Shown piece after piece: positions 2,413-25,125 of a DNA stretch of 64,000 bases. Source of the stretch: an uncultured Bacillota bacterium (lineage in GTDB: Bacteria > Bacillota > Clostridia > Lachnospirales > Lachnospiraceae); assembly GCA_949291945.1 (NCBI GenBank), contig CASEXH010000010.1, forward strand, positions 44,482-108,481. Direction: 5' to 3'. How positions within the stretch are numbered: the first letter of the stretch is position 1; each line of letters begins with the position of its first letter. A model generated the notes under the pieces. It saw only the letters and a program-made list of their open reading frames with translations, had not been told where the DNA came from and did not search any database. A program made the translations under genes and the position numbers.

Positions 2413-4146
2413 TCATTCTTCCCCGGGCATCTTCCATGCATGGTGATCTGTATGAAGGAGATGGTGGGCTATTTCAGAAAGGGGGGCTTCCAGGTAATCC
2501 TGGTAGCATTTGGTCACGGAAGGATTCTCATGTGAAAAACGCAGATTGTTTACTTTATCCAGCCCGTAAAGCACCGTGTTTCTCACTTCAGACAATTCTT
2601 CTCCATCCTTGATAGGCTGCCCTCCGCCGCCAGTGCAGCCCCCGGGACAGGCCATGATCTCCACAAAGTCATATTTCACCTTTCCTTTGCGGATGGCCTT
2701 CATCAGCTTCCTTGTATTGCCCAGTCCGCTGGCCACCGCTACCCGGATGGTCTGTCCTGCCAGATTGAATTCTGCCTCTTTCCATCCTTCCATTCCCCTG
2801 ACCTTTTTAAAAGAGTCCGGATCCGGGTTTCTTCCTGTCACCAGATAATAAGCAGTACGCAGAGCTGCTTCCATGACACCGCCGGTAGCTCCGAAAATAA
2901 CACCTGCCCCTGTTCCGGTTCCCAGAGGGGTATCGAATTCTTCCTCTTCCAGTCTGGAAGGATCAATGTGTTCAGAACGGATCAGGCGGACAACCTCTCT
3001 GGTAGTCAGCACTGCATCTACATCCTGCCCGGCGCCAGCGTCATTCATCACCGGAATATCACATTCCTGTTTTTTCGCAATGCAGGGCATGATAGACAGG
3101 GAAAAGATCCTGGAGGGATCCACTCCCAAAAGCTGGGCATAATAGGATTTTGCCACTGCCCCAAACATCTGCTGGGGAGATTTTGCGCTGGACAGCTGGT
3201 CCACCATATCCGGATACTGGGATTTCATAAATCTTACCCAGCCGGGGCAGCAGGATGTAAACATGGGATATCTTTCCAGATCGCCTTTTTTCAATCTTTC
3301 CAAAAATTCACTGCCCTCTTCCATGATGGTCAGGTCTGCGCTGAAATTGGTATCGAAAATATAATCAAACCCGATCTGCCGCAGAGCAGCTACCAGTCTT
3401 TTAACGGTTGCAAACTCCCGGGACAGGCCGAAAGACTCTCCCCAGGAAGTGCGGACTGCCGGAGCAAGCTGAACCACTGTGATTTTTTCTGGATCTGCCA
3501 GGGCATCCAGGACCTTACGCCGGTCATCTCTTTCCCTTAATGCTCCTACCGGGCAATGGGTAATGCACTGGCCGCAGAGAGCACAGTCTGATTCATCAAT
3601 CTTCCTGTTTCTGGAAACATCTACCGTTGTCCTGGATCCGGTTCCTGCCACATCCCAGATATTCAGGTTTTGTATCTTATCACAGACCTGCACACAGCGC
3701 ATACACTTGATACATTTTCCCGCATCACGGATCAGAGGAAATTCCATAGGCCACCGGGACCTGGGCAGTTCAATCTCAAAGGGCAGATCCAGGATCCCCA
3801 GATCATTGGAAATGGTCTGAAGGCTGCAGTTGCCGCTCCGCACACAGGTGGCGCATTTGCAGTCATGCTGTGACAGAATCAGTTCCACGTTATTTCTCCG
3901 GCTCTCCCGGACTTTGGGACTGTTGGTAAACACTTCCATACCATCCCACACTTCATTGTTGCAGGCAGTCACCAGCTTTGCGCAGTTCTTTACCTCTACC
4001 ACACAGACACGGCAGGCGCCGATTTCATTAATATCTTTCAGAAAGCACAGGGTTGGAATCCGGATCCCGGCCTGGGACGCAGCGTCTAAAATAGTGGTTC
4101 CTTCCTTTACTTCCACGTTTTTTCCGTTTATCGTCAGTTTTACCAT
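2413..4146 (-). CDS. hydA: [FeFe]-hydrogenase group A catalytic subunit
   Basis: H-cluster motifs FTSCCPGW, MPCIAKKQE and EIMACPGGCTGGGGQP, plus N-terminal 2Fe-2S, His-ligated 4Fe-4S and 2x4Fe-4S motifs. Confidence 0.97.
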   Translation of the reverse strand: MVKLTINGKNVEVKEGTTILDAASQAGIRIPTLCFLKDINEIGACRVCVVEVKNCAKLVTACNNEVWDGMEVFTNSPKVRESRRNNVELILSQHDCKCATCVRSGNCSLQTISNDLGILDLPFEIELPRSRWPMEFPLIRDAGKCIKCMRCVQVCDKIQNLNIWDVAGTGSRTTVDVSRNRKIDESDCALCGQCITHCPVGALRERDDRRKVLDALADPEKITVVQLAPAVRTSWGESFGLSREFATVKRLVAALRQIGFDYIFDTNFSADLTIMEEGSEFLERLKKGDLERYPMFTSCCPGWVRFMKSQYPDMVDQLSSAKSPQQMFGAVAKSYYAQLLGVDPSRIFSLSIMPCIAKKQECDIPVMNDAGAGQDVDAVLTTREVVRLIRSEHIDPSRLEEEEFDTPLGTGTGAGVIFGATGGVMEAALRTAYYLVTGRNPDPDSFKKVRGMEGWKEAEFNLAGQTIRVAVASGLGNTRKLMKAIRKGKVKYDFVEIMACPGGCTGGGGQPIKDGEELSEVRNTVLYGLDKVNNLRFSHENPSVTKCYQDYLEAPLSEIAHHLLHTDHHAWKMPGEE

Positions 4147-5978
4147 TTTTCAATCCTGCCTCCTTTCAGAATACCAAATCCAAAGTGGTCACAGCGGATA
4201 CATCTTCTGGCTTCCTGACAGGCCTCCTCGCAGGTCATTCCTTCTTCAATCAGTTCAAAGTCCTTGATCCTCTCAGAAGCCTGACGGACCTTCATATTTA
4301 CTCTGGCGCAGCTGCGGTTATCATCCAGACGTACTCTGGGGATTTCCACATCTGTGGAGATCACATGGTTGTATCCCAGGAATTCATCGATATTGGCTGC
4401 TGCCACCTTGCCTGCGGCGATTGCCCGGATGACTGTGGCCGGTCCGGTAACACAGTCGCCTCCTGCAAAGACGCCGGTAATATCTTTGGTCTTTACGCCG
4501 CTCCAGCTCATAGCCTCGATAACCCCCCGTTTCACCGGAATTCCCTGTTTTTCAAATTCTTTTGATTCAATGCCCTGACCAATGGCTACGATCACAATAT
4601 CACAGCCAAGACGCACAGGAGCTTTTGTAGATACCATAGGAACCGGTCTTCCATGTTTCATGGGGCCGATGATCTGAGGCTGCACCCACAAAGCTGACGC
4701 TCGGCCCTGGTCATCTACTTCAATCCTTAATGGTGCATGAAGATCCAAAAGTTCACAGCCCTCTTCAATGGCTCCTTCGATCTCCTCTTCCATAGCAGTC
4801 ATGTCTACCCGACGTCTCCGATAAGCGATCCGCACCCGTTTTGCTCCCAGGCGCACCGCAGACCGGGCTACATCCATGGCTACGTTTCCGCCACCTATAA
4901 CGACGATTTCCTTTCCTGTGAAATCCGGCATCTCGTCGTCTCCGATTTCCCGGAGAAGTTCCACAGCGGAGATGACGCCTTGGGCTTCTTCCCCTTCAAT
5001 GCCAATCTTTCTGTCAATATGTGCTCCAATGGCAATATAAACTGCATCATACTCTTCTCTTAAATCTGCGATATTTGGATCCTCTCCCACTGTTACCTCT
5101 GTCTTTACATGAATACCCAGACTTAAGAGATGGTTGATCTCCCGGTCCAGTTCCTCTCTTGGCAGACGGTAATTGGGGATTCCATAGCGGAGCATACCGC
5201 CCAGTTTCTTTCTCTGCTCAAAGATCGTCACCTCGTGTCCCATAAGGGTGAGATAATAAGCCGCACTGATACCTCCCGGGCCACCGCCTATAACAGCTAC
5301 CTTCTTTCCTGTAGCCACCGCCGGTACAGGAAGGGGAACATCGCCTGCATGATCTACTGCAAATCGTTTCAGTCCACGGATATTAACCGGATCATCTACC
5401 ATGGTCCTGCGGCACCGTACCTCGCAGGGATGTTCACAGATCAGGCCGCAGACTGCAGGAAGGGGATTATCTTTTCGGATCAGCCGCACCGCATCCCCGT
5501 ATCGGCCCTCTGCTACCAAAGCTACATAACCGGGAATATCCACTCCCGCCGGACATTGGGATACACAGGGAACCGGCTGGTTCAGCTCAAATTTACATCT
5601 TCCTCTTAAAACATGTTCCTCAAAATCATCTCTGAATCCGCGGATTCCTTTTAAAACCATTCTGGCAGCTTCATAGCCGATGGCGCAGTCTGCGGAATAA
5701 AAAATATTCCGTGCAGTTTTTTCGATAAGATCGATCACGGAAAGGTCCGCCTGTCCGTCCAGGACCTGCTCCATCAGCTTCTGGAGCTGACCCAGTCCTA
5801 CCCTGCAGGGCACACACTTTCCACAGGACTGGGCATGACAAAGTTTCAAAAAAGACGAGGCCAGATCCACAGGACATAGTCCGGGAGGACTGGCGCTGAT
5901 CCGTCTTTCCAGGTCTTTATACAGTTCTTCTACTGTCGCCTGGGCTTTGTTCTGTGTAATAATACTTAATCTGCTCAA
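4140..5978 (-). CDS. NAD(P)-binding GltD/SudA-like flavoprotein with an N-terminal NuoF-type 4Fe-4S domain; hydrogenase partner subunit
   Basis: Motifs SCGKCVPC...C, CVSQCP, CGLICEHPCE, GGGPGG, GGGNVAMD and C-terminal RCIRC. A TTG start at 5978 follows RBS GAGGAGG (the ORF-track start at 6158 is too far upstream). The stop overlaps the hydA start. Confidence 0.9.
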   Translation of the reverse strand: MSRLSIITQNKAQATVEELYKDLERRISASPPGLCPVDLASSFLKLCHAQSCGKCVPCRVGLGQLQKLMEQVLDGQADLSVIDLIEKTARNIFYSADCAIGYEAARMVLKGIRGFRDDFEEHVLRGRCKFELNQPVPCVSQCPAGVDIPGYVALVAEGRYGDAVRLIRKDNPLPAVCGLICEHPCEVRCRRTMVDDPVNIRGLKRFAVDHAGDVPLPVPAVATGKKVAVIGGGPGGISAAYYLTLMGHEVTIFEQRKKLGGMLRYGIPNYRLPREELDREINHLLSLGIHVKTEVTVGEDPNIADLREEYDAVYIAIGAHIDRKIGIEGEEAQGVISAVELLREIGDDEMPDFTGKEIVVIGGGNVAMDVARSAVRLGAKRVRIAYRRRRVDMTAMEEEIEGAIEEGCELLDLHAPLRIEVDDQGRASALWVQPQIIGPMKHGRPVPMVSTKAPVRLGCDIVIVAIGQGIESKEFEKQGIPVKRGVIEAMSWSGVKTKDITGVFAGGDCVTGPATVIRAIAAGKVAAANIDEFLGYNHVISTDVEIPRVRLDDNRSCARVNMKVRQASERIKDFELIEEGMTCEEACQEARRCIRCDHFGFGILKGGRIEKW

Positions 5979-6003
5979 TGAAAGATTCCTCCTCTCTTCT
6001 GAT

Positions 6004-6158
6004 AAAAAAGGGCGGCATTTATCGCTTATCCGATAAATGTCGCCCAGACGTCCGGCTTCTCTATCAGCTCTTGCCACATCATGGTACTCCATTTTATACG
6101 TCAGCAGCAAAAACCCTTTATTTAAATTCAACATATCACATTCAATGCCTTCTGTCAA
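6004..6158 (-). promoter_or_regulatory. Sigma-A promoter and 5' leader containing an intrinsic terminator (attenuator) ahead of the hydrogenase operon
   Basis: TTGACA (6158-6153), 17 bp, TATGTT (6135-6130). A 15-bp stem (6010-6024 / 6031-6045) is followed by T6 on the minus strand, ending ~25 nt before the TTG start. Confidence 0.7.
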
Positions 6159-6231
6159 TTTAATTTTTATAATAATATTTTCTTAATTAAGCATTCTATC
6201 TCTCTATTTTCACAAAAATTCCCCATCCCAC

Positions 6232-7761
6232 TTATAGCTTTAATGATATTCCTGTGCTCTCAGCAGCTTTCAAAAGCTCTCCTTCCAGAAGCAGTTCCCG
6301 AACAGCTTCTATGTACGGTTCTAAAGCCACATCTTCTTTCAATGCCGGCATAACCTGGCGGATTTTCTTATATACGGCCTCCAGAGCAGGAGAAGATTTC
6401 ATCTCCGGATAAAATTCCTTTGCCTGGGCAGCGCAGATCAGTTCTATGGCAAGGATATATTGTCCAAGCTGAACACAGTCATATGCTTTTTTGGCCGCAT
6501 TATACCCCATACTTACATAGTCTTCCTGATTTGCGCAGGTCACAACATTGTCTACTACTGCCGGGGCAGACAGAAGCCGCATTTCTCCGATCAGACCGGC
6601 AGAAGTGTACTGAATCATCATCAGGCCGTCATTAAAATCCGCATCAGCATTCAGAAAAGGAGGTAATTCGCTGACATGACGGTTTACCAGACGGTCTGTC
6701 CTTCTCTCCGACATTTTTGCCAGGTCTGTAAGGGCAATGCACAGAAAATCTGAAGCCATTCCCAGATAGCTTCCGTCTGCATTGCATCCCATAACTGCCT
6801 CTGCCTGTCCATTTTCTTCAAAGATAAGAGGATTATCCACAGAAGAATTCAGTTCGATATCGATAGTTGACAGGCCGTCAGAAAGAGCTTTCTTCACAGC
6901 GCCGTGAAGCTGCGGGATACAGCGCAGGGACAGTGCGTCCTGCACCCGATAGTCTTTATACTTTTCGATAATCTGGCTTCCCTTCAGGAGATTCCGGATA
7001 TTTTCTGCTGTTTTTATCTGTCCTGGATGAGGCCTTGCCAGCATAAGTCTCTCATCCATGGCCATAACTGTTCCTTTCAGCATTTCCAGAGAAAAGGCTC
7101 CTGCAATATCTGCTGTTTTTGCAAGGATTACAGCATCATAGTAAGCCAGACATGCCAGCGCCGTTACAGATGTAGTTCCTGACACAAGGGTAAGACCTTC
7201 TTTTGCCCCAAGGACAACCGGCTTTAAGCCGGCCTTTTCCAGAGCCTCTTTTCCGGGGCAAAGCTCCCCTTTGTACCATGCCTTTCCCTCCCCGATCAGC
7301 ACCATACCGATATGAGCTTCCAGTCCAATGTAGCCCACCGATCCGTGTTTGGGAACTCTTGGAAAGATTCCCCGGTTCAGACATTCCCGCAGAAGTTCCA
7401 GAGTTTCCAGCCGAAATCCAGTATGGCCGCTTCCAAAATGGAGCAGCATAATAAACATCATAGCTCTTACCCCTTCTTCTTCAAGAGGTTCTCCTACAGA
7501 TACCGTATGGGCCAGGATATGATTTTTCTGGATCTTTACCCTTTCTTCTTCCGGAACAAATTTTCTGCAGTTGTCTCCAAGCCCTGTGGTAATTCCATAA
7601 ATTGCCTTTCCTTCCCGGCTGAACCGTTCTACATGGGTCCTGCACCGGCTGACTCTGTCCTTATATTCCTGAGAAAACTCCACTTTTGCGTGATGTCTTG
7701 CTACCTTTATCACCTGTTCCAGTGTGTTCTTTTCTTCCAAAATTACAGTCTTCATTTCCAA
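6232..7761 (-). CDS. HAL/PAL-fold ammonia-lyase family protein lacking the MIO-forming Ala-Ser-Gly
   Basis: Family motifs IYGITTGLG, QDALSLRCIPQLHG, DNPLIF and NQEDYVSMG are present. The MIO segment reads GSVGYIGLEAH instead of GSVGASGDLAPL. Confidence 0.88.
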   Translation of the reverse strand: MEMKTVILEEKNTLEQVIKVARHHAKVEFSQEYKDRVSRCRTHVERFSREGKAIYGITTGLGDNCRKFVPEEERVKIQKNHILAHTVSVGEPLEEEGVRAMMFIMLLHFGSGHTGFRLETLELLRECLNRGIFPRVPKHGSVGYIGLEAHIGMVLIGEGKAWYKGELCPGKEALEKAGLKPVVLGAKEGLTLVSGTTSVTALACLAYYDAVILAKTADIAGAFSLEMLKGTVMAMDERLMLARPHPGQIKTAENIRNLLKGSQIIEKYKDYRVQDALSLRCIPQLHGAVKKALSDGLSTIDIELNSSVDNPLIFEENGQAEAVMGCNADGSYLGMASDFLCIALTDLAKMSERRTDRLVNRHVSELPPFLNADADFNDGLMMIQYTSAGLIGEMRLLSAPAVVDNVVTCANQEDYVSMGYNAAKKAYDCVQLGQYILAIELICAAQAKEFYPEMKSSPALEAVYKKIRQVMPALKEDVALEPYIEAVRELLLEGELLKAAESTGISLKL

Positions 7762-7768
7762 TCTCCAA

Positions 7769-8797
7769 TCAATTCAGCAGTCTGTTGTTTTCATAACCCC
7801 CTTCCAGGGAAACGCTCATACGCTTTAAGCGTTGATAAACATCCTCTTCAAGCTCTGTAACATTCTGATTTCTTTCATCGACAGGCTTATTCCCGAAAAT
7901 TTCCCCGGGCACATAAACCTGTCCGCCTGGTTTTATAGGAGGACATTCTCTTACTTCCTGGGCAAGATGGTCCACCTGCTCTTTAAAATCTTCCAGATCC
8001 GTAAACATTTCTGTTGAAAAGGCAAGGAACAGATATCCCAGATCATACTCATCTTTTCCGGCTCTTCCCATCTTTGCTCCTACAAAAGCGCCTGTCAGGA
8101 TCTCCAGAGCGTAGCATAAGGCATAGCCTTTTGGGCCTCCAAAGGGCACTCCCGCTTCTGCCCGCTTTGGACCTGTGGTAAAATTCCCCGCTTTATCTAT
8201 GAAGGCATTTTCCGGCAAAGGACGGTTCTCTACCATTGCCTGCCGCACCTCTCCCCAGACTTTCTGGGATGTAGCAAAGTCAAAGATATACGGTTTTCCT
8301 CTGCCGCTTGGGAAAGAAAAGCATAAGGGATTCGTCCCGAATATACCTCTGGCTCCTCCATAAGGCGCAACACATGCAGGTCCCCCATTATTCGTAATCA
8401 TTCCCACCAGACCTTCCTGGGCAATTTTTCTGGCATAAGGAGTTACTCGTGAATACCTGCTTACATTTTTCAGAGCTACAATTCCTACGCCGTACTCTTT
8501 TGCAGCCTCAATGGCAAGATTGGTCCCATATAAAGCAGCAATATGTCCCAGTTCTCCATTGCCGTCTATCTGGGCATAACAACCGTTTTTCCTGAGCAAC
8601 TTCATATCTCCCGTTCTTCTGGAAAGTCCTGCATCCACAGTCAGAAATTTAGATATCCCATGGGTCTTATGTCCTTCCAGCTCAGACTCCAGATAATCTG
8701 ACACCATAAAATCTGCATATTCTCCGCAGATCCCTCGAATCTCCAGAGACTTTGTCATTAGTTCTTTTATTTCTTCTATTTCTACGGTCACTGTCAT
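7769..8797 (-). CDS. Ldh_2-family oxidoreductase (DpkA/ComC/AllD-like)
   Basis: Motifs GHKTHG, GTNPLCFSFP, FDFATS and PFGGPKGYAL. Confidence 0.9.
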   Translation of the reverse strand: MTVTVEIEEIKELMTKSLEIRGICGEYADFMVSDYLESELEGHKTHGISKFLTVDAGLSRRTGDMKLLRKNGCYAQIDGNGELGHIAALYGTNLAIEAAKEYGVGIVALKNVSRYSRVTPYARKIAQEGLVGMITNNGGPACVAPYGGARGIFGTNPLCFSFPSGRGKPYIFDFATSQKVWGEVRQAMVENRPLPENAFIDKAGNFTTGPKRAEAGVPFGGPKGYALCYALEILTGAFVGAKMGRAGKDEYDLGYLFLAFSTEMFTDLEDFKEQVDHLAQEVRECPPIKPGGQVYVPGEIFGNKPVDERNQNVTELEEDVYQRLKRMSVSLEGGYENNRLLN

Positions 8798-8822
8798 ATC
8801 CTGTACATCCCTCCCTCAGCTT

Positions 8823-9245
8823 CTATTTTTCCTCTGCACTGTCCAGGATTTCTATCAGTCCCCTGTCGGCATCCACCAGAATTCTGTCGCCGTCTTTTAC
8901 CTCCTCATAGAAGGCGGGATCCACCCGATCTACCATAGGAATTTCCATGATGATAGCGCTGGATACCAGTACAGTTTCCGGATACTGGATGATCATGGCA
9001 GCCGGAGAATTGTTTTTCTGGTTTAACTGATAAAGTCCGTCTGCCTGTACTACAGAGCTTCCCTTGCCTCCGGGAAAAATCAATACTTTATGGGCTACGG
9101 ATTTTCCTTCCAGATCATGGGCTTTCTCTATAACCTTTCCTGTAGCCGGATCTATGAGATAAAACATGATATTGTCTTTTGACACAACTGCCTCTGCTTC
9201 CGCTCGTCCCTCTGAAATCTTATGACATTGAAATACTTTTCCCAT
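8823..9245 (-). CDS. Aconitase X small (swivel) subunit, DUF126
   Basis: Motifs GRAEAEAVVS, GKSVAHKVLIFPGGKGSS and SAIIMEIPMVD; adjacent to the large subunit. Confidence 0.9.
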   Translation of the reverse strand: MGKVFQCHKISEGRAEAEAVVSKDNIMFYLIDPATGKVIEKAHDLEGKSVAHKVLIFPGGKGSSVVQADGLYQLNQKNNSPAAMIIQYPETVLVSSAIIMEIPMVDRVDPAFYEEVKDGDRILVDADRGLIEILDSAEEK

Positions 9246-9246
9246 C

Positions 9247-10455
9247 TTATTTTACCTCCCCTGTAAGTGCTGCCTGTATACATGTATCAAGGTCCCGTAT
9301 AACAAAATGGATACCTCTCCGCTGAGGATAGTAGGCGCATTTCGGTGATTCTGTGATACCCACCTTTCCTGTAAGATGTCTCCAGCAAGGCTGATCCGGG
9401 CAGCTGTCCGGCACGATAAATCCTCCTGCATCAGTAATGATCTCATCCAGCCCCATCCGGACTGCCATCTCTTTCACATGACTGGAGGTCAGGATCCACA
9501 TTTCTTTTTTCAACGTTTTCCCTTCTACTCGTTCCGCAATATATTTCACTTCTTCCAGAGTAAAATGAGGACAGCCAAACATTGCAAAATCAATTTCCCG
9601 GTTTCCTTCCAGTGAAATTTCTTTCAGGATTTCTTCTTTATCCTCATTGGTGATCACTACTTTTCGTACAGGTTCTTTCCCCCCGAAAGCCGTCTCAAGA
9701 TCCGGTGCTTCCGGAGTATAGCCTACGATATGATACATTCCATAGGCACCTGAAGTATTTAACTGAGCTCCCAGATTTCTCAGAGCCTCTTTTGTAATAG
9801 TTTCCTTTGGAAAACCGGTAAACACCGGAACTCCCTCGCCGATCTTCTTCCCCAGCATACCAATCATATGATAGTCGAAGGGGGTTTTTACATCGGCCTG
9901 TATCTCTACCAGGACAGTTCCTCTTCTGTTTTCGTCCAGAAGCAGCCCGTATTCCGGCACATATCCGGTTATAGCCGCACACAGAGCGCTGTTTGCCCCT
10001 TCCCGGTTGGTCCTGGCCCCCCAGACAGCATTTGCGTAGGGCGTTGCGCTGGATTCTGAAAAAGCGATCACCTCTTTATAATTTGGCACATTTGTATCTA
10101 TGTAGGGCGTACAGTTGTAACTAAGCTGAGCCCCCAGAGCTTTATAGGCATTGTGGGTGCGCTGCATCAAGTCTGCAAATTCCGGTGCGACCATATTTCT
10201 GTTTTTAAAAAATTCCAGACAAAATCCCGGATTCACTGTAGGAGTCACACGACATCTGGCGCCCCCTTCCAGCATTTTTTCTGCAAACCACAGATCTGCT
10301 TCCTGATTTGAAAGTGCAACATGAGCTCTGGTGATAGGCACCATCCGCTCTGCACCGAAGGATTCTCCGATGGCCACCTGGATCTTCATAGCATAGGCAG
10401 TTCCTTTTCCATATTTTCCGTCCAGCATATCCTGCTGATGTTGTGTAAGCTCCAT
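9247..10455 (-). CDS. Aconitase X catalytic (large) subunit, DUF521
   Basis: Motifs TPTVNPG, YNCTPY, AFSESSA, WGARTNREG, ALCAAITG, FGCPH and DSC. Confidence 0.92.
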   Translation of the reverse strand: MELTQHQQDMLDGKYGKGTAYAMKIQVAIGESFGAERMVPITRAHVALSNQEADLWFAEKMLEGGARCRVTPTVNPGFCLEFFKNRNMVAPEFADLMQRTHNAYKALGAQLSYNCTPYIDTNVPNYKEVIAFSESSATPYANAVWGARTNREGANSALCAAITGYVPEYGLLLDENRRGTVLVEIQADVKTPFDYHMIGMLGKKIGEGVPVFTGFPKETITKEALRNLGAQLNTSGAYGMYHIVGYTPEAPDLETAFGGKEPVRKVVITNEDKEEILKEISLEGNREIDFAMFGCPHFTLEEVKYIAERVEGKTLKKEMWILTSSHVKEMAVRMGLDEIITDAGGFIVPDSCPDQPCWRHLTGKVGITESPKCAYYPQRRGIHFVIRDLDTCIQAALTGEVK

Positions 10456-10479
10456 TTGATTACCTCCTGTAAAATTTTT

Positions 10480-10860
10480 CTATAATTTCACAATGGCTCC
10501 TACTTCTATTTTCATACCTCCCCACAGTTCCAGGGCAACGCCGCTTCTGGCCGGAGGGCATTCTGTTCCGAAAAACTCTTCGTAAATTTCATTCATAGCG
10601 TCAAAGTCTTTCATGGTAGACAAAAACACATCGCATTTCACCACATCCTCCATAGAAGCTCCCAGCTCTTCCACAATCAATTTCAGATTGCCAAGGGCTC
10701 TCCTTGTTTCTTCCTGGATGGTTCCATGGATGATTTCTCCCGTTTCAGGATCCAGGGCGATCTGACCCGAAACAAAAGCAAATCCCCCTGCTATAGCTAC
10801 CTCTGCCACCGGACCGCCAAAAACTTTCATTCCTTTAGGGGTAAATACTTCTTTTTTCAT
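10480..10860 (-). CDS. RidA/YjgF/UK114-family protein
   Basis: Motifs FVSGQIALDP, VVKCDVFL, DFDAMNEIY and PPARS. Confidence 0.92.
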   Translation of the reverse strand: MKKEVFTPKGMKVFGGPVAEVAIAGGFAFVSGQIALDPETGEIIHGTIQEETRRALGNLKLIVEELGASMEDVVKCDVFLSTMKDFDAMNEIYEEFFGTECPPARSGVALELWGGMKIEVGAIVKL

Positions 10861-11025
10861 CTTACAAGACTCCTTTCATTTTTTCTGTCAATGTCTTTAC
10901 TATATTTTTATCAGGTTCTTGTCGGAAAACTGTCTGACCGGAAGGATTTTTTATCCTGAGAAAAAGGAAGCAGCCTTTTTCCCAAAAAAAGACTGGTGCA
11001 TAAACTGCATCAGCCTTTTTATTTT

Positions 11026-13908
11026 TTATTCTTCTAATCTTTTCAGCTCTTCTCTCAGGAAATCACTGCCAAGCCTTTTTGCTAGCTTCTCAGAAATTTC
11101 TCTATGTTTTGCCCCCTCTTCTGCATCTCCTGCGGCTTCCAGAACAATTCCGATACACCGCTCTGCTTTCGCCTCTCCCCAGACAGAGCCTACTTTTGCA
11201 AAATATTCTTTAGCTATATATGCATATTGCTCCGCTTTTTCAAACTCTCCCAGATGATACAGAGCAAAGCTCATATCTGAGTAAAAAATCCCTGTCTCTC
11301 CGTATATTTTGTATTCCTCTCCCAGATGGATGGCCTGTTCCAGATATCCGCAGGCCTCCTGCCATTTTTTTTGCCGTATATAGCACAGTCCCATATTGTG
11401 ATAACAAGCAGAAAGCTCCTTTAAATATTTCGCCTTTTTTTCCTCTCTGCCGCCCAGGTAATTAATAGCCTCCTGGTAAAGTTTTTCCGCTTCTGCATAC
11501 TCACCGTTCTTTACCTTGGAAGTTGCCAGATAGCGCAGCAGCATACATTCCTCTTCTATGTGATGATGGGTGCAGTCTTTCATAAATATCATGCAGGTAT
11601 CGATAACATCCTGCATAAAGCCATTCTGTCCGGTCAGATCTCCGTACAAAATCAGCTGCAGATAATTATAAAACATATAGTCTCTGTCCTGCAGTTCTCT
11701 TGCCAGTTCCAGGCTTTTTTCCACATGTTTCTTTCCCTGGCTGCTGTCTGCTACAAACATTTCATATCTTCCCAGCAGATACTCTATGCGCATACGTATG
11801 GGGGCAAGCTCTGGCTTCTCCTCCTGCTGTTCTTTGATTTCCTCTGCCAGAAGTACCAGTTCATCCTCACGGGCATAATAACCGTCTATATTTCCGCTGA
11901 AGACAGCTTTTCTCGCCAGCATAGGATATAGAGCATATGTAATAGTATAAAAAGGTTCCAGGTATTTGACTTTATACTCATATGTTTTATATAAATTTCC
12001 GCACTGTTCATAATGATACAAAACCAGAGAACAGATTTCCAGATCCGGAGTTTCTCTGTATCTTTCTTCATAAAACCGTGCGATATAAGCATGATACATA
12101 TTCCTTTTTTCTTCAGACAGAGATTTGTATACATACTCATGAAGGATCTGATGGCGGAATCCATACCGAATTTCTCCTTTTGACCATTTTTCACAGAGGA
12201 TCTTTTTCTCCAGCAATGGCTCCAGGATCTGCCGCAGCTGTCCGTCTTCCAGGCCGAAAATCTGGTTGATCTCCTGAAGAGACGCCGGAAGAGAAAAAAT
12301 AGACAGAATATCCAGTAGTGTACGCTCCCGTCTGGACAATCTGAGAAGACGGCTTTGGAGCACATTGGAGGTTTTGTCAGTAAAGCCTTCCCAGGCATCC
12401 CCTTCATCAAAAAGCCGCAGAGATTCCATAAAAAACAAAGGATTTCCCTGGGTCTTTTCATATATTTCCCGGGCCAGTACAGGATCTTTCTCCAGGCCGC
12501 TTCCTGACTGGCTGATGATTTCCTGTGTTTCCGCAAAAGTAAAAGGCTTCAGGATGATTTCTTTTAAAAGGCCCCTGCCGATCAGAGGGATCTTGAAATT
12601 TTTTATAGCATCTCCATCCTCTTCTCTGTATGCGGCCATGACCAGAAGATTTCCATGGCCCATACGAAATAAAAGATTACTCATAAGACGTACGCTCATT
12701 GGATCCATCCACTGGATATCGTCAATGAGCAGAAGAATCTTCTTATTCCGGAAATTTTTAGATAAATATCGGAAAACCGACTCTGTTAAAACTTCAAACC
12801 TGGTCATCAGAAAACGAAGATCCGTATCTGTGTGATTCTGAAGTATATCAATGGGGGAGTCTACCGTCAGTCCATTTATTTTGCAGTATTCTGCCACAGC
12901 TTCCATAATGCCGTACCAGGCCATCAAATAGAGCTCTTTTTCTGTCTCGCAGCAGTTCCAGGAAAAGACCAGATAATCTGACTTTTCAAACATCCTGTGG
13001 ATCTGCTCCAGCAGCATACTTTTCCCAATACCCGGCTCACCGGTTATCAGGTAAGATACCTGGCTTCTTTCATCACTTTCTTCATTAGCAAAGACCTTGA
13101 AATAAATATCATAGAGGATATCTGTCCTTCCGAAAAAATAATCTTTTGTCTTTAGATCAGGAAGTTTCAGACTCTTCTTCATGCCTGAAATCTTCTCAAA
13201 AAGATTTTTTGTCTCTTCTTCCGGCTCTTCTCCCACTTCTTTTTTCAAAAACTCTCTCAGTTTCTGATAAAGCTCTACAGCAACCGAATATCTGCCGGCT
13301 TCTGCCATTTTCTTCATAATGCAGCGGTAGATCTCCTCGTCCATCCATTCCTGCTGCAAGAATATCCGTCCGCTTTCTTCCAGAAATTCCGGTTCTTCTC
13401 CTGGTTTCAACTCCATGATCTTCAGCTGCAGAGCTTTTATATAATCCCGTCTGCGCCTGAGTCTTTCGCCCTCTGCCCAATCCTCAAATTCATAGCAGTT
13501 TTTCACATAAAAAAACTGCAGAAATTCTCCTCTGACTTTTTCCAGCAAGTTTTCTCTTGTATCCTGTTCAATATCAATGCTGATATCTCTTTCCCTGTTC
13601 AATGCGATCCTGCTGTTTCCCTCTATAATAAGAATATCCTGTCCCAAAACCTTTCGTATATTATAAAGAGCATCTCTTAAGTTCTTTCTTGCAGTAGTTT
13701 CGCTGGAATCTGCCCATAAAACTCCAATAGCCTGGGTCCTGGTTATCTGATTATTTACACACAGGTAATAGAACAGGCCTTCAACCTTTTGATAGGGAAA
13801 ACTAACCTCCTCGCCTTTATGCCGAACCGCAGGAGTACCCATAAGCCAGACTTCTACGTCATGTTGCCATTTCTGTTCTCCTCTCTGAGATGTGTATTCT
13901 GTATTCAT
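11026..13908 (-). CDS. Large SARP/STAND-type activator (wHTH-BTAD, AAA ATPase, TPR sensor)
   Basis: N-terminal LRDALYNIRKVLG and BTAD region, Walker A GEPGIGKS, Walker B LLIDDIQW, GNPLF motif and C-terminal TPR-like helices. Confidence 0.85.
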   Translation of the reverse strand: MNTEYTSQRGEQKWQHDVEVWLMGTPAVRHKGEEVSFPYQKVEGLFYYLCVNNQITRTQAIGVLWADSSETTARKNLRDALYNIRKVLGQDILIIEGNSRIALNRERDISIDIEQDTRENLLEKVRGEFLQFFYVKNCYEFEDWAEGERLRRRRDYIKALQLKIMELKPGEEPEFLEESGRIFLQQEWMDEEIYRCIMKKMAEAGRYSVAVELYQKLREFLKKEVGEEPEEETKNLFEKISGMKKSLKLPDLKTKDYFFGRTDILYDIYFKVFANEESDERSQVSYLITGEPGIGKSMLLEQIHRMFEKSDYLVFSWNCCETEKELYLMAWYGIMEAVAEYCKINGLTVDSPIDILQNHTDTDLRFLMTRFEVLTESVFRYLSKNFRNKKILLLIDDIQWMDPMSVRLMSNLLFRMGHGNLLVMAAYREEDGDAIKNFKIPLIGRGLLKEIILKPFTFAETQEIISQSGSGLEKDPVLAREIYEKTQGNPLFFMESLRLFDEGDAWEGFTDKTSNVLQSRLLRLSRRERTLLDILSIFSLPASLQEINQIFGLEDGQLRQILEPLLEKKILCEKWSKGEIRYGFRHQILHEYVYKSLSEEKRNMYHAYIARFYEERYRETPDLEICSLVLYHYEQCGNLYKTYEYKVKYLEPFYTITYALYPMLARKAVFSGNIDGYYAREDELVLLAEEIKEQQEEKPELAPIRMRIEYLLGRYEMFVADSSQGKKHVEKSLELARELQDRDYMFYNYLQLILYGDLTGQNGFMQDVIDTCMIFMKDCTHHHIEEECMLLRYLATSKVKNGEYAEAEKLYQEAINYLGGREEKKAKYLKELSACYHNMGLCYIRQKKWQEACGYLEQAIHLGEEYKIYGETGIFYSDMSFALYHLGEFEKAEQYAYIAKEYFAKVGSVWGEAKAERCIGIVLEAAGDAEEGAKHREISEKLAKRLGSDFLREELKRLEE

Positions 13909-24412: not shown

Positions 24413-24530
24413 GGCAGGATATCACATAAAAAGCAGCAGAGATAGAAAAGTACAAAAGCGTATAAATTCCCTGATGCCGGTTTATTAATGAGCACTCCCA
24501 TCGTCCGTAAGAAGCTCAAGGTAAAAGGAT

Positions 24531-24690
24531 AAGCAGGTCTCCTGACTTATGCTCAACGCTCGCCGTGCCTTCCCAAGGCCTGAACCTCAGTGACATCATA
24601 CGGTCTGCTCACAATCACAGTGACGGGATCGTTTCGGATTCTCACCGAATTCCCATTTAATCCATCTCTGGAACTTTTCCTCTGGCATAT
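24531..24690 (-). ncRNA. Cobalamin (B12) riboswitch
   Basis: Minus strand: GGGAATTCGGTGAGAATCCGAAACGATCCCGTCACTGTGA...CACTG...GGGAAG...AGTCAGGAGACCTGC (B12 box). Confidence 0.93.
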
Positions 24691-24854
24691 GTGGCCAAAT
24701 TATGAATTTGTCGTTTATAACCATAACATTCCCCTACCTTACTGTCAAGCTTTTTCCCGCCAAAGCAAAAAGTTCCTAATTTTCTTTTATTTTTGTTGAC
24801 AAACTGGTGTTTTTGCACATATAATACTTTTAATAACTTTTTCACATGTATAAA

Positions 24855-25125
24855 ATGCAGTGACAAGGAGGAGTACATAATCGCCGGATGTCCAGAGAAG
24901 AGACGGCTGGTGAAAGTCTTTGTGAAGGGATTATGGAAGGTAGCCTTCGAGCAGTGGACCGAACCATGATATACCAAGTATCATGCAGTAGACTCCAACG
25001 TAATTTCCACGTTACAGGAAAGCAGTATAGTTTCTTCTGTACTGGCTGAGTGCAGAGAGTGATTCTCTGAAATTAGGTGGTAACACGGATCAATTCGCCC
25101 TAAGCTTTATGCTTAGGGCATTTTT
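24855..25125 (+). ncRNA. T-box riboswitch, Val (GUA) specifier
   Basis: Stem I with AGAGA and GGTGAAA boxes and specifier loop GGAAG-GTA-G (24940-24942). T-box AATTAGGTGGTAACACGG at 25071-25088. Terminator GCCCTAAGC/GCTTAGGGC plus a T-rich run. Confidence 0.9.

Follow-up and report, generated by a model that had tools for sequence, protein, structure and literature searches.

The leader of a two-gene operon encoding a GltD-like iron-sulfur flavoprotein and an [FeFe] hydrogenase (HydA) contains a ZMP/ZTP riboswitch (ZMP and ZTP, 5-aminoimidazole-4-carboxamide ribonucleoside 5'-mono- and triphosphate) of Rfam family RF01750, the pfl motif, and this riboswitch very probably acts as a transcriptional ON switch for the gltD-like/hydA operon. 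The operon lies in a 64,000-nucleotide stretch of contig CASEXH010000010.1, from the assembly of an uncultured Lachnospiraceae bacterium (GCA_949291945.1), which is hereafter called the window. All genes around the leader are on the minus strand, and the leader lies in the interval between the stop codon of a lyase gene (6232) and the start of the flavoprotein gene (5978).

The leader and its riboswitch class

The whole window was searched against Rfam at gathering thresholds, and positions 5900-6300 also at E-values up to 10. RF01750 matched at 6118-6035 on the minus strand over the full model, with 44.6 bits against a gathering threshold of 39, and the same segment scores 87.2 bits with a covariance model built from orthologous copies. 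The only other Rfam matches in 5900-6300 at E up to 10 were sub-threshold noise (RT-9 at 20 bits against 46, snoRNAs and miRNAs). A preliminary description of this DNA, made from the letters alone, had recognised no riboswitch class here, a statement that the RF01750 match overturns, and had proposed an unnamed ligand- or protein-controlled switch for a hydrogenase operon. What remains of that proposal is a riboswitch attenuator with its own promoter, whereas its class does have a name. Membership of RF01750 makes ZMP/ZTP the likely ligand, rather than NAD(H), metals or amino acids. The parts of the leader are as follows.

6158-6153 (-): -35 hexamer TTGACA, from a consensus scan; TTGAC(A/C/G) is kept in 18 of 19 orthologous leaders
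6138-6130 (-): extended -10 element TGA-TATGTT, with TG at 6138-6137, TATGTT at 6135-6130 and a 17-nt spacer
6118-6035 (-): ZMP/ZTP riboswitch aptamer, RF01750 model positions 1-86
6116-6107 (-): 5' strand of P1, GGGUUUUUGC, pairing with 6074-6065 (Rfam alignment)
6102-6098 (-): 5' strand of the pseudoknot, GACGU, in J1/2, pairing with ACGUC at 6051-6047 in L3
6092-6081 (-): P2 hairpin, AUGG-AGUA-CCAU (Rfam alignment and covariation)
6074-6065 (-): 3' strand of P1, GCAAGAGCUG, pairing with 6116-6107
6064-6057 (-): variable linker between the aptamer subdomains, differing in length and sequence among orthologues
6056-6042 (-): P3 hairpin, GCC-GGACGUCUG-GGC, in which GCC (6056-6054) pairs with GGC (6044-6042)
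6045-6010 (-): intrinsic terminator hairpin, 15 positions with one A.C mismatch, -20.9 kcal/mol
6045-6031 (-): 5' arm of the terminator, GGGCGACAUUUAUCG, opening with G6045 and the P3 3' strand (6044-6042)
6030-6025 (-): terminator loop, GAUAAG
6024-6010 (-): 3' arm of the terminator, CGAUAAAUGCCGCCC
6009-6004 (-): U6 tract of the terminator, directly 3' of the GC-rich stem-loop
5994-5988 (-): ribosome binding site GAGGAGG; a GGAGG-type site lies equally distant from the start in homologous loci

Like the ZTP riboswitches of Clostridium beijerinckii pfl and Thermosinus carboxydivorans, the window element has the P1-J1/2-P2 subdomain, a variable linker, P3, the pseudoknot between J1/2 and L3 and the invariant motif CCGNNCGYCUGGGC. 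It also shares a terminator that competes with P3 and the pseudoknot, which is the antitermination ON design of the class, and it differs by a G in place of A before CUG. The pairings listed in the preliminary description can now be named: GACGU with ACGUC is the class pseudoknot, the AUGG-AGUA-CCAU hairpin is P2, and the GGC...GCC helix abutting the terminator is P3, the 3' strand of which lies inside the terminator 5' arm. Where the class consensus of the pseudoknot is GGCG/CGCC, the window has GACGU/ACGUC, a compensated change from G-C to A-U. A variable linker between subdomains has been described for the ZTP class (PMC7337938).

The P3/L3 sequence of the window, GCCGGACGUCUGGGC at 6056-6042, fits the class motif, and its L3 holds the 3' strand of the pseudoknot (6051-6047) followed by U6046 and G6045. 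In solved ZTP structures, ZMP is paired to the U of L3, and the G, stacked on P3, makes up the pocket floor (bioRxiv 10.1101/521930). These ZMP-contact positions, U6046 and G6045, are matched at the level of sequence and are invariant in all 19 leaders of the covariation set described below.

The near-consensus promoter noted earlier, TTGACA-17-TATGTT, is present at 6158-6130 with 10 of 12 consensus matches, although such a match alone is within chance, with 2 matches in a 2-kb region against 2.9 expected. It would place the transcription start site (TSS) near 6123-6121, at about 6122, giving a predicted leader of ~77 nt before the hairpin. The spacing from U6 to the TTG start codon (5978-5976) is 25 nt, and both this spacing and the leader length agree with the preliminary description. 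The hairpin, first described as 15 bp, is there as well, although one of its 15 positions is the A.C mismatch, because of which a simple terminator scan overlooked it. Read from its sequence, it is an intrinsic terminator, a GC-rich stem-loop of 15 positions followed by U6, and it is part of the minimum free energy fold of the leader. None of 200 shuffles folds as well as the complete leader (z = -3.44).

Conservation and covariation in related genomes

One genome per species of the Genome Taxonomy Database (GTDB) was scanned for relatives of the flavoprotein; 292 were found, and the best 80 loci were fetched. The closest relatives of the flavoprotein locus (96-99% identity) are chicken-gut metagenome-assembled genomes of "Candidatus Blautia", which marks the window as DNA of a gut member of the Lachnospiraceae. 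Directly upstream of gltD-like/hydA, RF01750 reached at least its gathering score in 16 of 20 orthologous leaders (40.1-60.5 bits), and the covariance model built from the orthologous copies found 23 of the 80 loci to hold a single copy each, besides that of the window. Leader conservation, which had been named as a check on the proposed switch, is thereby borne out. Every copy stands directly upstream of the flavoprotein gene. The carriers are all Lachnospiraceae and are confined to a clade with HydA at least 78% identical, made up of chicken- and human-gut members of the family, including the cultured Lientehia hominis NSJ-141.

Covariation was assessed in 19 good, non-identical leader sequences. 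As a caveat, the alignment was fitted to the nested helices of the model; the pseudoknot lay outside the model, and its covariation therefore tests the fold independently. Standard pairs fill 94.5% of the pair cells, as against 37-50% when the partners are slid by 1-3 columns, and double (two-sided) changes occur in 13 of 24 pairs. In P1/P1b, 91% of cells are paired and 9 of 12 pairs show double changes; P2 is 94.7% paired, its closing pair being G-C in 13 sequences and A-U in 6. The pseudoknot is paired in 98.9% of cells and covaries in three of its five pairs, occurring as GACGU/ACGUC, GACGG/CCGUC, GGCGA/UCGCC and GAUGG/CCAUC. Pseudoknot positions aside, CCG..CG.CUGGGC is invariant in 19/19 sequences.

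The signals on either side of the aptamer are kept along with it, so that 18-19 of the 19 orthologous leaders show the promoter, aptamer and terminator in the same register. All 19 have a hairpin that starts in the GGGC of P3 (-16 to -22 kcal/mol), followed in 18 by a run of at least four T; the exception, L003, has an interrupted TTGTTTGTT. A promoter of the form TTGAC-N17/18-TAnnnT is found in 18 of the 19, with a TGn extension in 17 of these 18 and with 5-15 nt between the end of its -10 element and the aptamer in each of them.

Three of the 23 loci carry eroded copies of the aptamer before the same operon, ~85% identical (L022:120-203, L023:2802-2880 and L024:2794-2877). Erosion has affected P1 and P2, the aptamer 3' half and the terminator are kept, and in the pseudoknot GACGG faces CCGCC with an A.C mismatch. 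These copies do not reach the Rfam threshold and score 22-32 bits with the orthologue-built covariance model; they look like decaying or re-purposed riboswitches.

Four other loci (L016, L019, L021 and L029) have the orthologous operon without a ZTP aptamer. At the leader site, ~130 nt upstream of the gltD-like start (position 3001; 273 in L021), they have a different, unnamed leader terminator. In L019 and L029, a TTGACA-17-TAAGGT promoter is followed within ~15-20 nt by a GC-rich hairpin and a T run (in L019, CCAGGGGGGAG-CGATT-CTCTCCTGG and then T7), and L016 and L021 have a comparable hairpin with an interrupted T run. The leaders of L016, L019 and L021 matched no family when scanned against Rfam, and no known RNA family was found upstream of the non-ZTP orthologues in 20 loci.

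The regulated operon

The genes on either side of the leader are the following.

7761-6232 (-): gene of the aromatic-amino-acid/histidine ammonia-lyase family (PF00221), upstream of the leader
5978-4140 (-): first regulated gene, encoding a 612-aa iron-sulfur flavoprotein, with a TTG start at 5978
4146-2413 (-): second regulated gene, encoding a 577-aa [FeFe] hydrogenase, HydA, its start overlapping the flavoprotein stop (4 nt plus 3 nt)

The flavoprotein combines a NuoF-type 4Fe-4S domain, a DPD-type 4Fe-4S domain and a GltD/NfnB-like FAD/NAD(P) module (Pfam PF10589, PF14691 and PF07992), and it matches NCBIfam NF009410. Its closest solved relatives are 9bov_A, a 1178-aa 'molybdopterin oxidoreductase', 9n5u_A, an NfnA chain, 8oh5_C, a 1172-aa formate-dehydrogenase-like protein, and the GltD-like large subunit of NfnAB (4ylf_B and 5jca_L). 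With the NfnAB large subunit and the GltD-like modules of larger bifurcating complexes (4ylf, 5jca, 8oh5, 9n5u and 9bov) it aligns over ~400-460 residues with E-values of 1e-76 to 1e-104, but in the window a hydrogenase takes the place of NfnA or a HydB/C-like module as its partner. In NfnAB, the GltD-like module is the NADPH-binding part.

HydA matches Pfam PF02906 (317 bits), PF02256 and PF13510 as well as TIGR02512, and the H-cluster motifs L1-L3 are complete in its translation (TSCCPGW, MPCIAKKQE and EIMACPGGCTGGGGQP). The pair with overlapping stop and start is found in 78 of the 80 loci, that is, wherever the contig passes the first gene. With the group A2 hydrogenases of HydDB ('glutamate synthase-linked') the window enzyme shares the group A type and intact H-cluster motifs, and its gene adjoins, and is translationally coupled with, that of a GltD-like NAD(P)-binding iron-sulfur flavoprotein. 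It differs from that group in several respects: the gltD-like gene is upstream of hydA, whereas the HydDB rule looks downstream; the flavoprotein has an extra NuoF-type 4Fe-4S domain, corresponding to the C-terminal 4Fe-4S domain of NuoF only; and NCBIfam NF040763, which HydA matches with 787 bits against a cutoff of 765, names it 'NADH-dependent [FeFe] hydrogenase, group A6'.

The interest of the finding lies in this operon. The RNA element itself is ordinary, a well-characterised class on a standard terminator platform that current Rfam-based annotation can find, whereas GltD-linked [FeFe] hydrogenases are common in gut Firmicutes and obscure in role. Riboswitch-gene associations have repeatedly served to assign functions to unknown proteins. 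If the proposed control is real, the riboswitch would be the first functional handle on the GltD-linked class. HydDB lists the role of group A2 as undetermined (PMC5037454), and a 2026 preprint calls GltD-linked hydrogenases "functionally uncharacterised" and reports them in 17% of gut bacterial species (bioRxiv 10.64898/2026.06.24.733704). Our literature searches returned no report of a riboswitch-controlled group A2 member.

Among the relatives, further riboswitches start ~60 nt after hydA, a cobalamin riboswitch in three loci (L010:6622-6814, L011:6625-6826 and L017:4426-4627) and an FMN riboswitch in another (L013:6620-6738). They mark the end of the two-gene operon and the beginning of the next riboswitch-controlled unit. 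In Robinsoniella, Lactonifactor and Murimonas (L036-L038, L040, L041, L043 and L064; about 620-2930), a second, distant hydrogenase lies immediately upstream of gltD-like/hydA. It consists of a HydA ~39% identical and a protein matching only flavoprotein residues 35-145, the N-terminal NuoF-type region.

Position among ZTP riboswitches

Published ZTP associations are with purH, fhs, pfl, glyA, folD and related purine or folate genes (PMC2864571; PMC7266159). Full-text searches found no paper linking ZTP riboswitches and hydrogenases, although the supplementary tables of Kim et al. 2015 or Meyer et al. 2011 might list one, and the searchable supplements of Weinberg et al. 2010 mention no hydrogenase-associated copy. 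A rough independent sample of the class was drawn by scanning metagenome contigs with an 18-base pattern, which also gives chance matches in high-GC contigs. It yielded 120 loci, 27 of them credible by a covariance-model filter that is biased to low-GC copies. The first downstream open reading frames (ORFs) of 23 of the 27 encode Fhs (nine), PFL (three), PurE (three), SHMT (two), FolD, PurH and a few others.

In the window itself, tblastn of the 64 kb found no Fhs, FolD, FchA, PFL, SHMT, PurE or PurH. Two of the relatives place the operon next to one-carbon genes: at L010:63-2769 and L011:6-2657, fhs (cut by the locus end), fchA (FTCD_C) and folD are directly upstream of the riboswitch. The order there, all on one strand, is fhs-fchA-folD, then promoter and ZTP riboswitch, then gltD-like-hydA. 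Aptamers linked to fhs in the metagenome sample score 65-77 bits with the model built solely from hydrogenase-linked copies (L177:8404-8486, L156:1386-1469, L142:10089-10172 and L197:4447-4530). A duplicated Lachnospiraceae fhs riboswitch may have given rise to the hydrogenase-linked copy.

Transcripts across the leader

The RNA data are assembled contigs of chicken- and other gut metatranscriptomes and carry neither strand nor local depth. In four metatranscriptomes, contig depth is ~8-38 over the operon and 0-9 over the lyase gene. From the ORF, contigs extend across the terminator into the aptamer, and they end at 6094 (X26), 6095 (X29), 6059 (X31) and 6244 (X25). The sequence 5' of the hairpin is therefore part of the mRNA, as the leader proposed in the preliminary description requires, and transcripts that read through the terminator exist in vivo. 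In X26, low-depth coverage picks up again at 6135 in a separate contig. The contigs of X26 and X29 break between 6094 and 6135, around the promoter, and the break in X26 brackets the predicted TSS and the -10 element. RNA abundance changes near the predicted promoter, and on transcription start and termination the contigs are suggestive, not decisive. The contigs of X27 and X28 look DNA-like, and a second set of runs was uninformative.

Proposed mechanism and physiological meaning

In the published mechanism of ZTP riboswitches, P3 and the pseudoknot form the antiterminator; when ligand is absent, the terminator displaces P3 by strand invasion, and ZMP blocks that displacement (PMC7337938; bioRxiv 10.1101/521930). 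Applied to the window, transcription would start near 6122 from the TG-extended, sigma-A-type promoter. The nascent RNA would fold P1-J1/2-P2 and then P3, and the GACGU/ACGUC pseudoknot between J1/2 and L3 would form. With no ligand bound, the 3' arm of the terminator (6024-6010) would displace the P3 3' strand GGGC (6045-6042), and the 15-bp hairpin with U6 would halt RNA polymerase 25 nt before the start codon. When ZMP/ZTP accumulates, it would bind at the interface of P3 and the pseudoknot, pairing with U6046 and stacking on G6045. P3 and the pseudoknot would be locked, strand invasion blocked, and the polymerase would read through into gltD-like/hydA.

As for the physiological reason, ZTP is an alarmone that signals shortage of 10-formyl-tetrahydrofolate (10-formyl-THF), and FolD interconverts methylene-THF and 10-formyl-THF using NADP(H). 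Since the GltD-like module binds NADPH in NfnAB, an NADP(H)-linked hydrogenase is suggested. ZTP control could, as a tentative proposal, place the GltD-linked (group A2-type) [FeFe] hydrogenase in a folate/one-carbon stress response. The rationale that we would put first, although as speculation and with odds below even, is that the enzyme serves as an NADP(H)-linked, H2-evolving redox valve, in which electrons passed from NADPH to H2 would pull FolD toward 10-formyl-THF or spare that pool. The conserved ZTP switch and the fhs-fchA-folD adjacency together raise the hypothesis that the H2 metabolism of this enzyme is coupled to the balance of 10-formyl-THF and NADPH.

Alternative explanations

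Several observations weigh against a canonical ZTP switch for the hydrogenase operon. The Rfam score of the window copy is just 5.6 bits above threshold, and the copy deviates from the consensus by a G for A before CUGRCG, a U.U in P1b and G41A/A45G in the P1 extension. The gltD-like/hydA operon is outside the documented ZTP regulon (PMC2864571), and neither GltD-like nor HydA proteins were encoded near any of the 27 credible metagenome copies. Contig X25, which reaches 6244, indicates some lyase read-through or DNA carry-over, and RNA contigs of this kind can neither map a TSS nor measure termination. Finally, the redox-valve rationale is speculation, the transfer of electrons from NADPH to H2 being uphill unless H2 is low or ferredoxin is co-oxidised.

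The unusual target and the modest 44.6 bits would both fit a ZTP fold that senses another ligand suited to a hydrogenase operon, such as a different purine or imidazole intermediate or else a redox cofactor. Changed ligand specificity is seen in variants of the guanine and guanidine riboswitch classes, and the G for A before CUGRCG is common to all 19 hydrogenase-linked copies. The same change is also found in three copies that precede the canonical target fhs (L083, L107 and L129), which removes it as a sign of altered specificity. The L3 motif with its ligand-pairing U and G floor does not vary, relatives before the same operon score up to 60.5 bits, and fhs-linked aptamers score highly with the model of the hydrogenase copies, while in two genomes the riboswitch adjoins fhs-fchA-folD itself. 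We therefore regard a specificity variant as quite unlikely. Could the hairpin and U6 instead end the lyase operon, with the promoter and aptamer incidental or vestigial and the hydrogenase genes transcribed by leak-through or from another signal? The search for an intrinsic terminator after the lyase gene and before the hydrogenase promoter (6231-6159, minus strand) found none, and none other stands between the lyase stop and the hairpin. The weak statistics of the promoter match, the RNA contig spanning 6244 to the ORF and the three loci in which the aptamer has eroded while the terminator is retained point the same way. Only the window and L005, however, have a lyase as the upstream gene. 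Other genomes have in its place a P-type ATPase (on either strand), an alpha/beta hydrolase, a phosphoglycerate mutase, an FtsQ-like protein or folD, and because upstream neighbours differ between genomes, the promoter-aptamer-terminator unit belongs to the gltD-like/hydA operon. Conservation of that unit, with covariation, extends to genomes in which an unrelated or oppositely oriented gene stands upstream, operon RNA is several-fold deeper than that of the lyase gene, and two sets of contigs break around the promoter. The hairpin is thus more than a lyase terminator; a role confined to the lyase operon, which the preliminary description had named as what could undo its proposal, is highly improbable. 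A dual role does not conflict with the riboswitch reading, and the riboswitch terminator probably does also stop lyase read-through. As it is the first terminator downstream of the lyase, read-through transcripts from that gene, which would carry the full aptamer, would come under ZTP control too.

The leader might also be translated, either as an N-terminal extension of the flavoprotein or as a leader peptide controlling the terminator, given that the reading frame is open from 6158 into the flavoprotein gene (ORF 6158-4140), with possible starts at TTG 6158 or ATG 6092. The ATG at 6092 lacks a ribosome binding site. In all 80 loci the homologues share one start, M/L-SRLSIITQN behind GGAGG, and the same frame holds stop codons upstream of it in 17 of 18 orthologous loci, so that the open frame from 6158 to 5978 is coincidental. 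Substitutions in the leader also follow RNA-pair covariation and not codons. The in-frame stops and the single common start rule out either coding reading of 6158-5978, the chance of which we consider negligible.

Other features of the window

Elsewhere in the window, a T-box leader (24851-25105, plus strand, 111.8 bits) stands back to back with a cobalamin riboswitch that points in the opposite direction (24515-24693, minus strand, 110.9 bits). Upstream of the lyase gene, with translations read by eye, the minus-strand ORFs at 7769-10860 look like an Ldh_2-type dehydrogenase, a two-part aconitase-X-like pair and a RidA-like protein, and a 960-aa ORF at 11026-13908 on the same strand looks like a large transcriptional regulator. 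The genes at 7769-13908 may form a catabolic cluster unrelated to the riboswitch.

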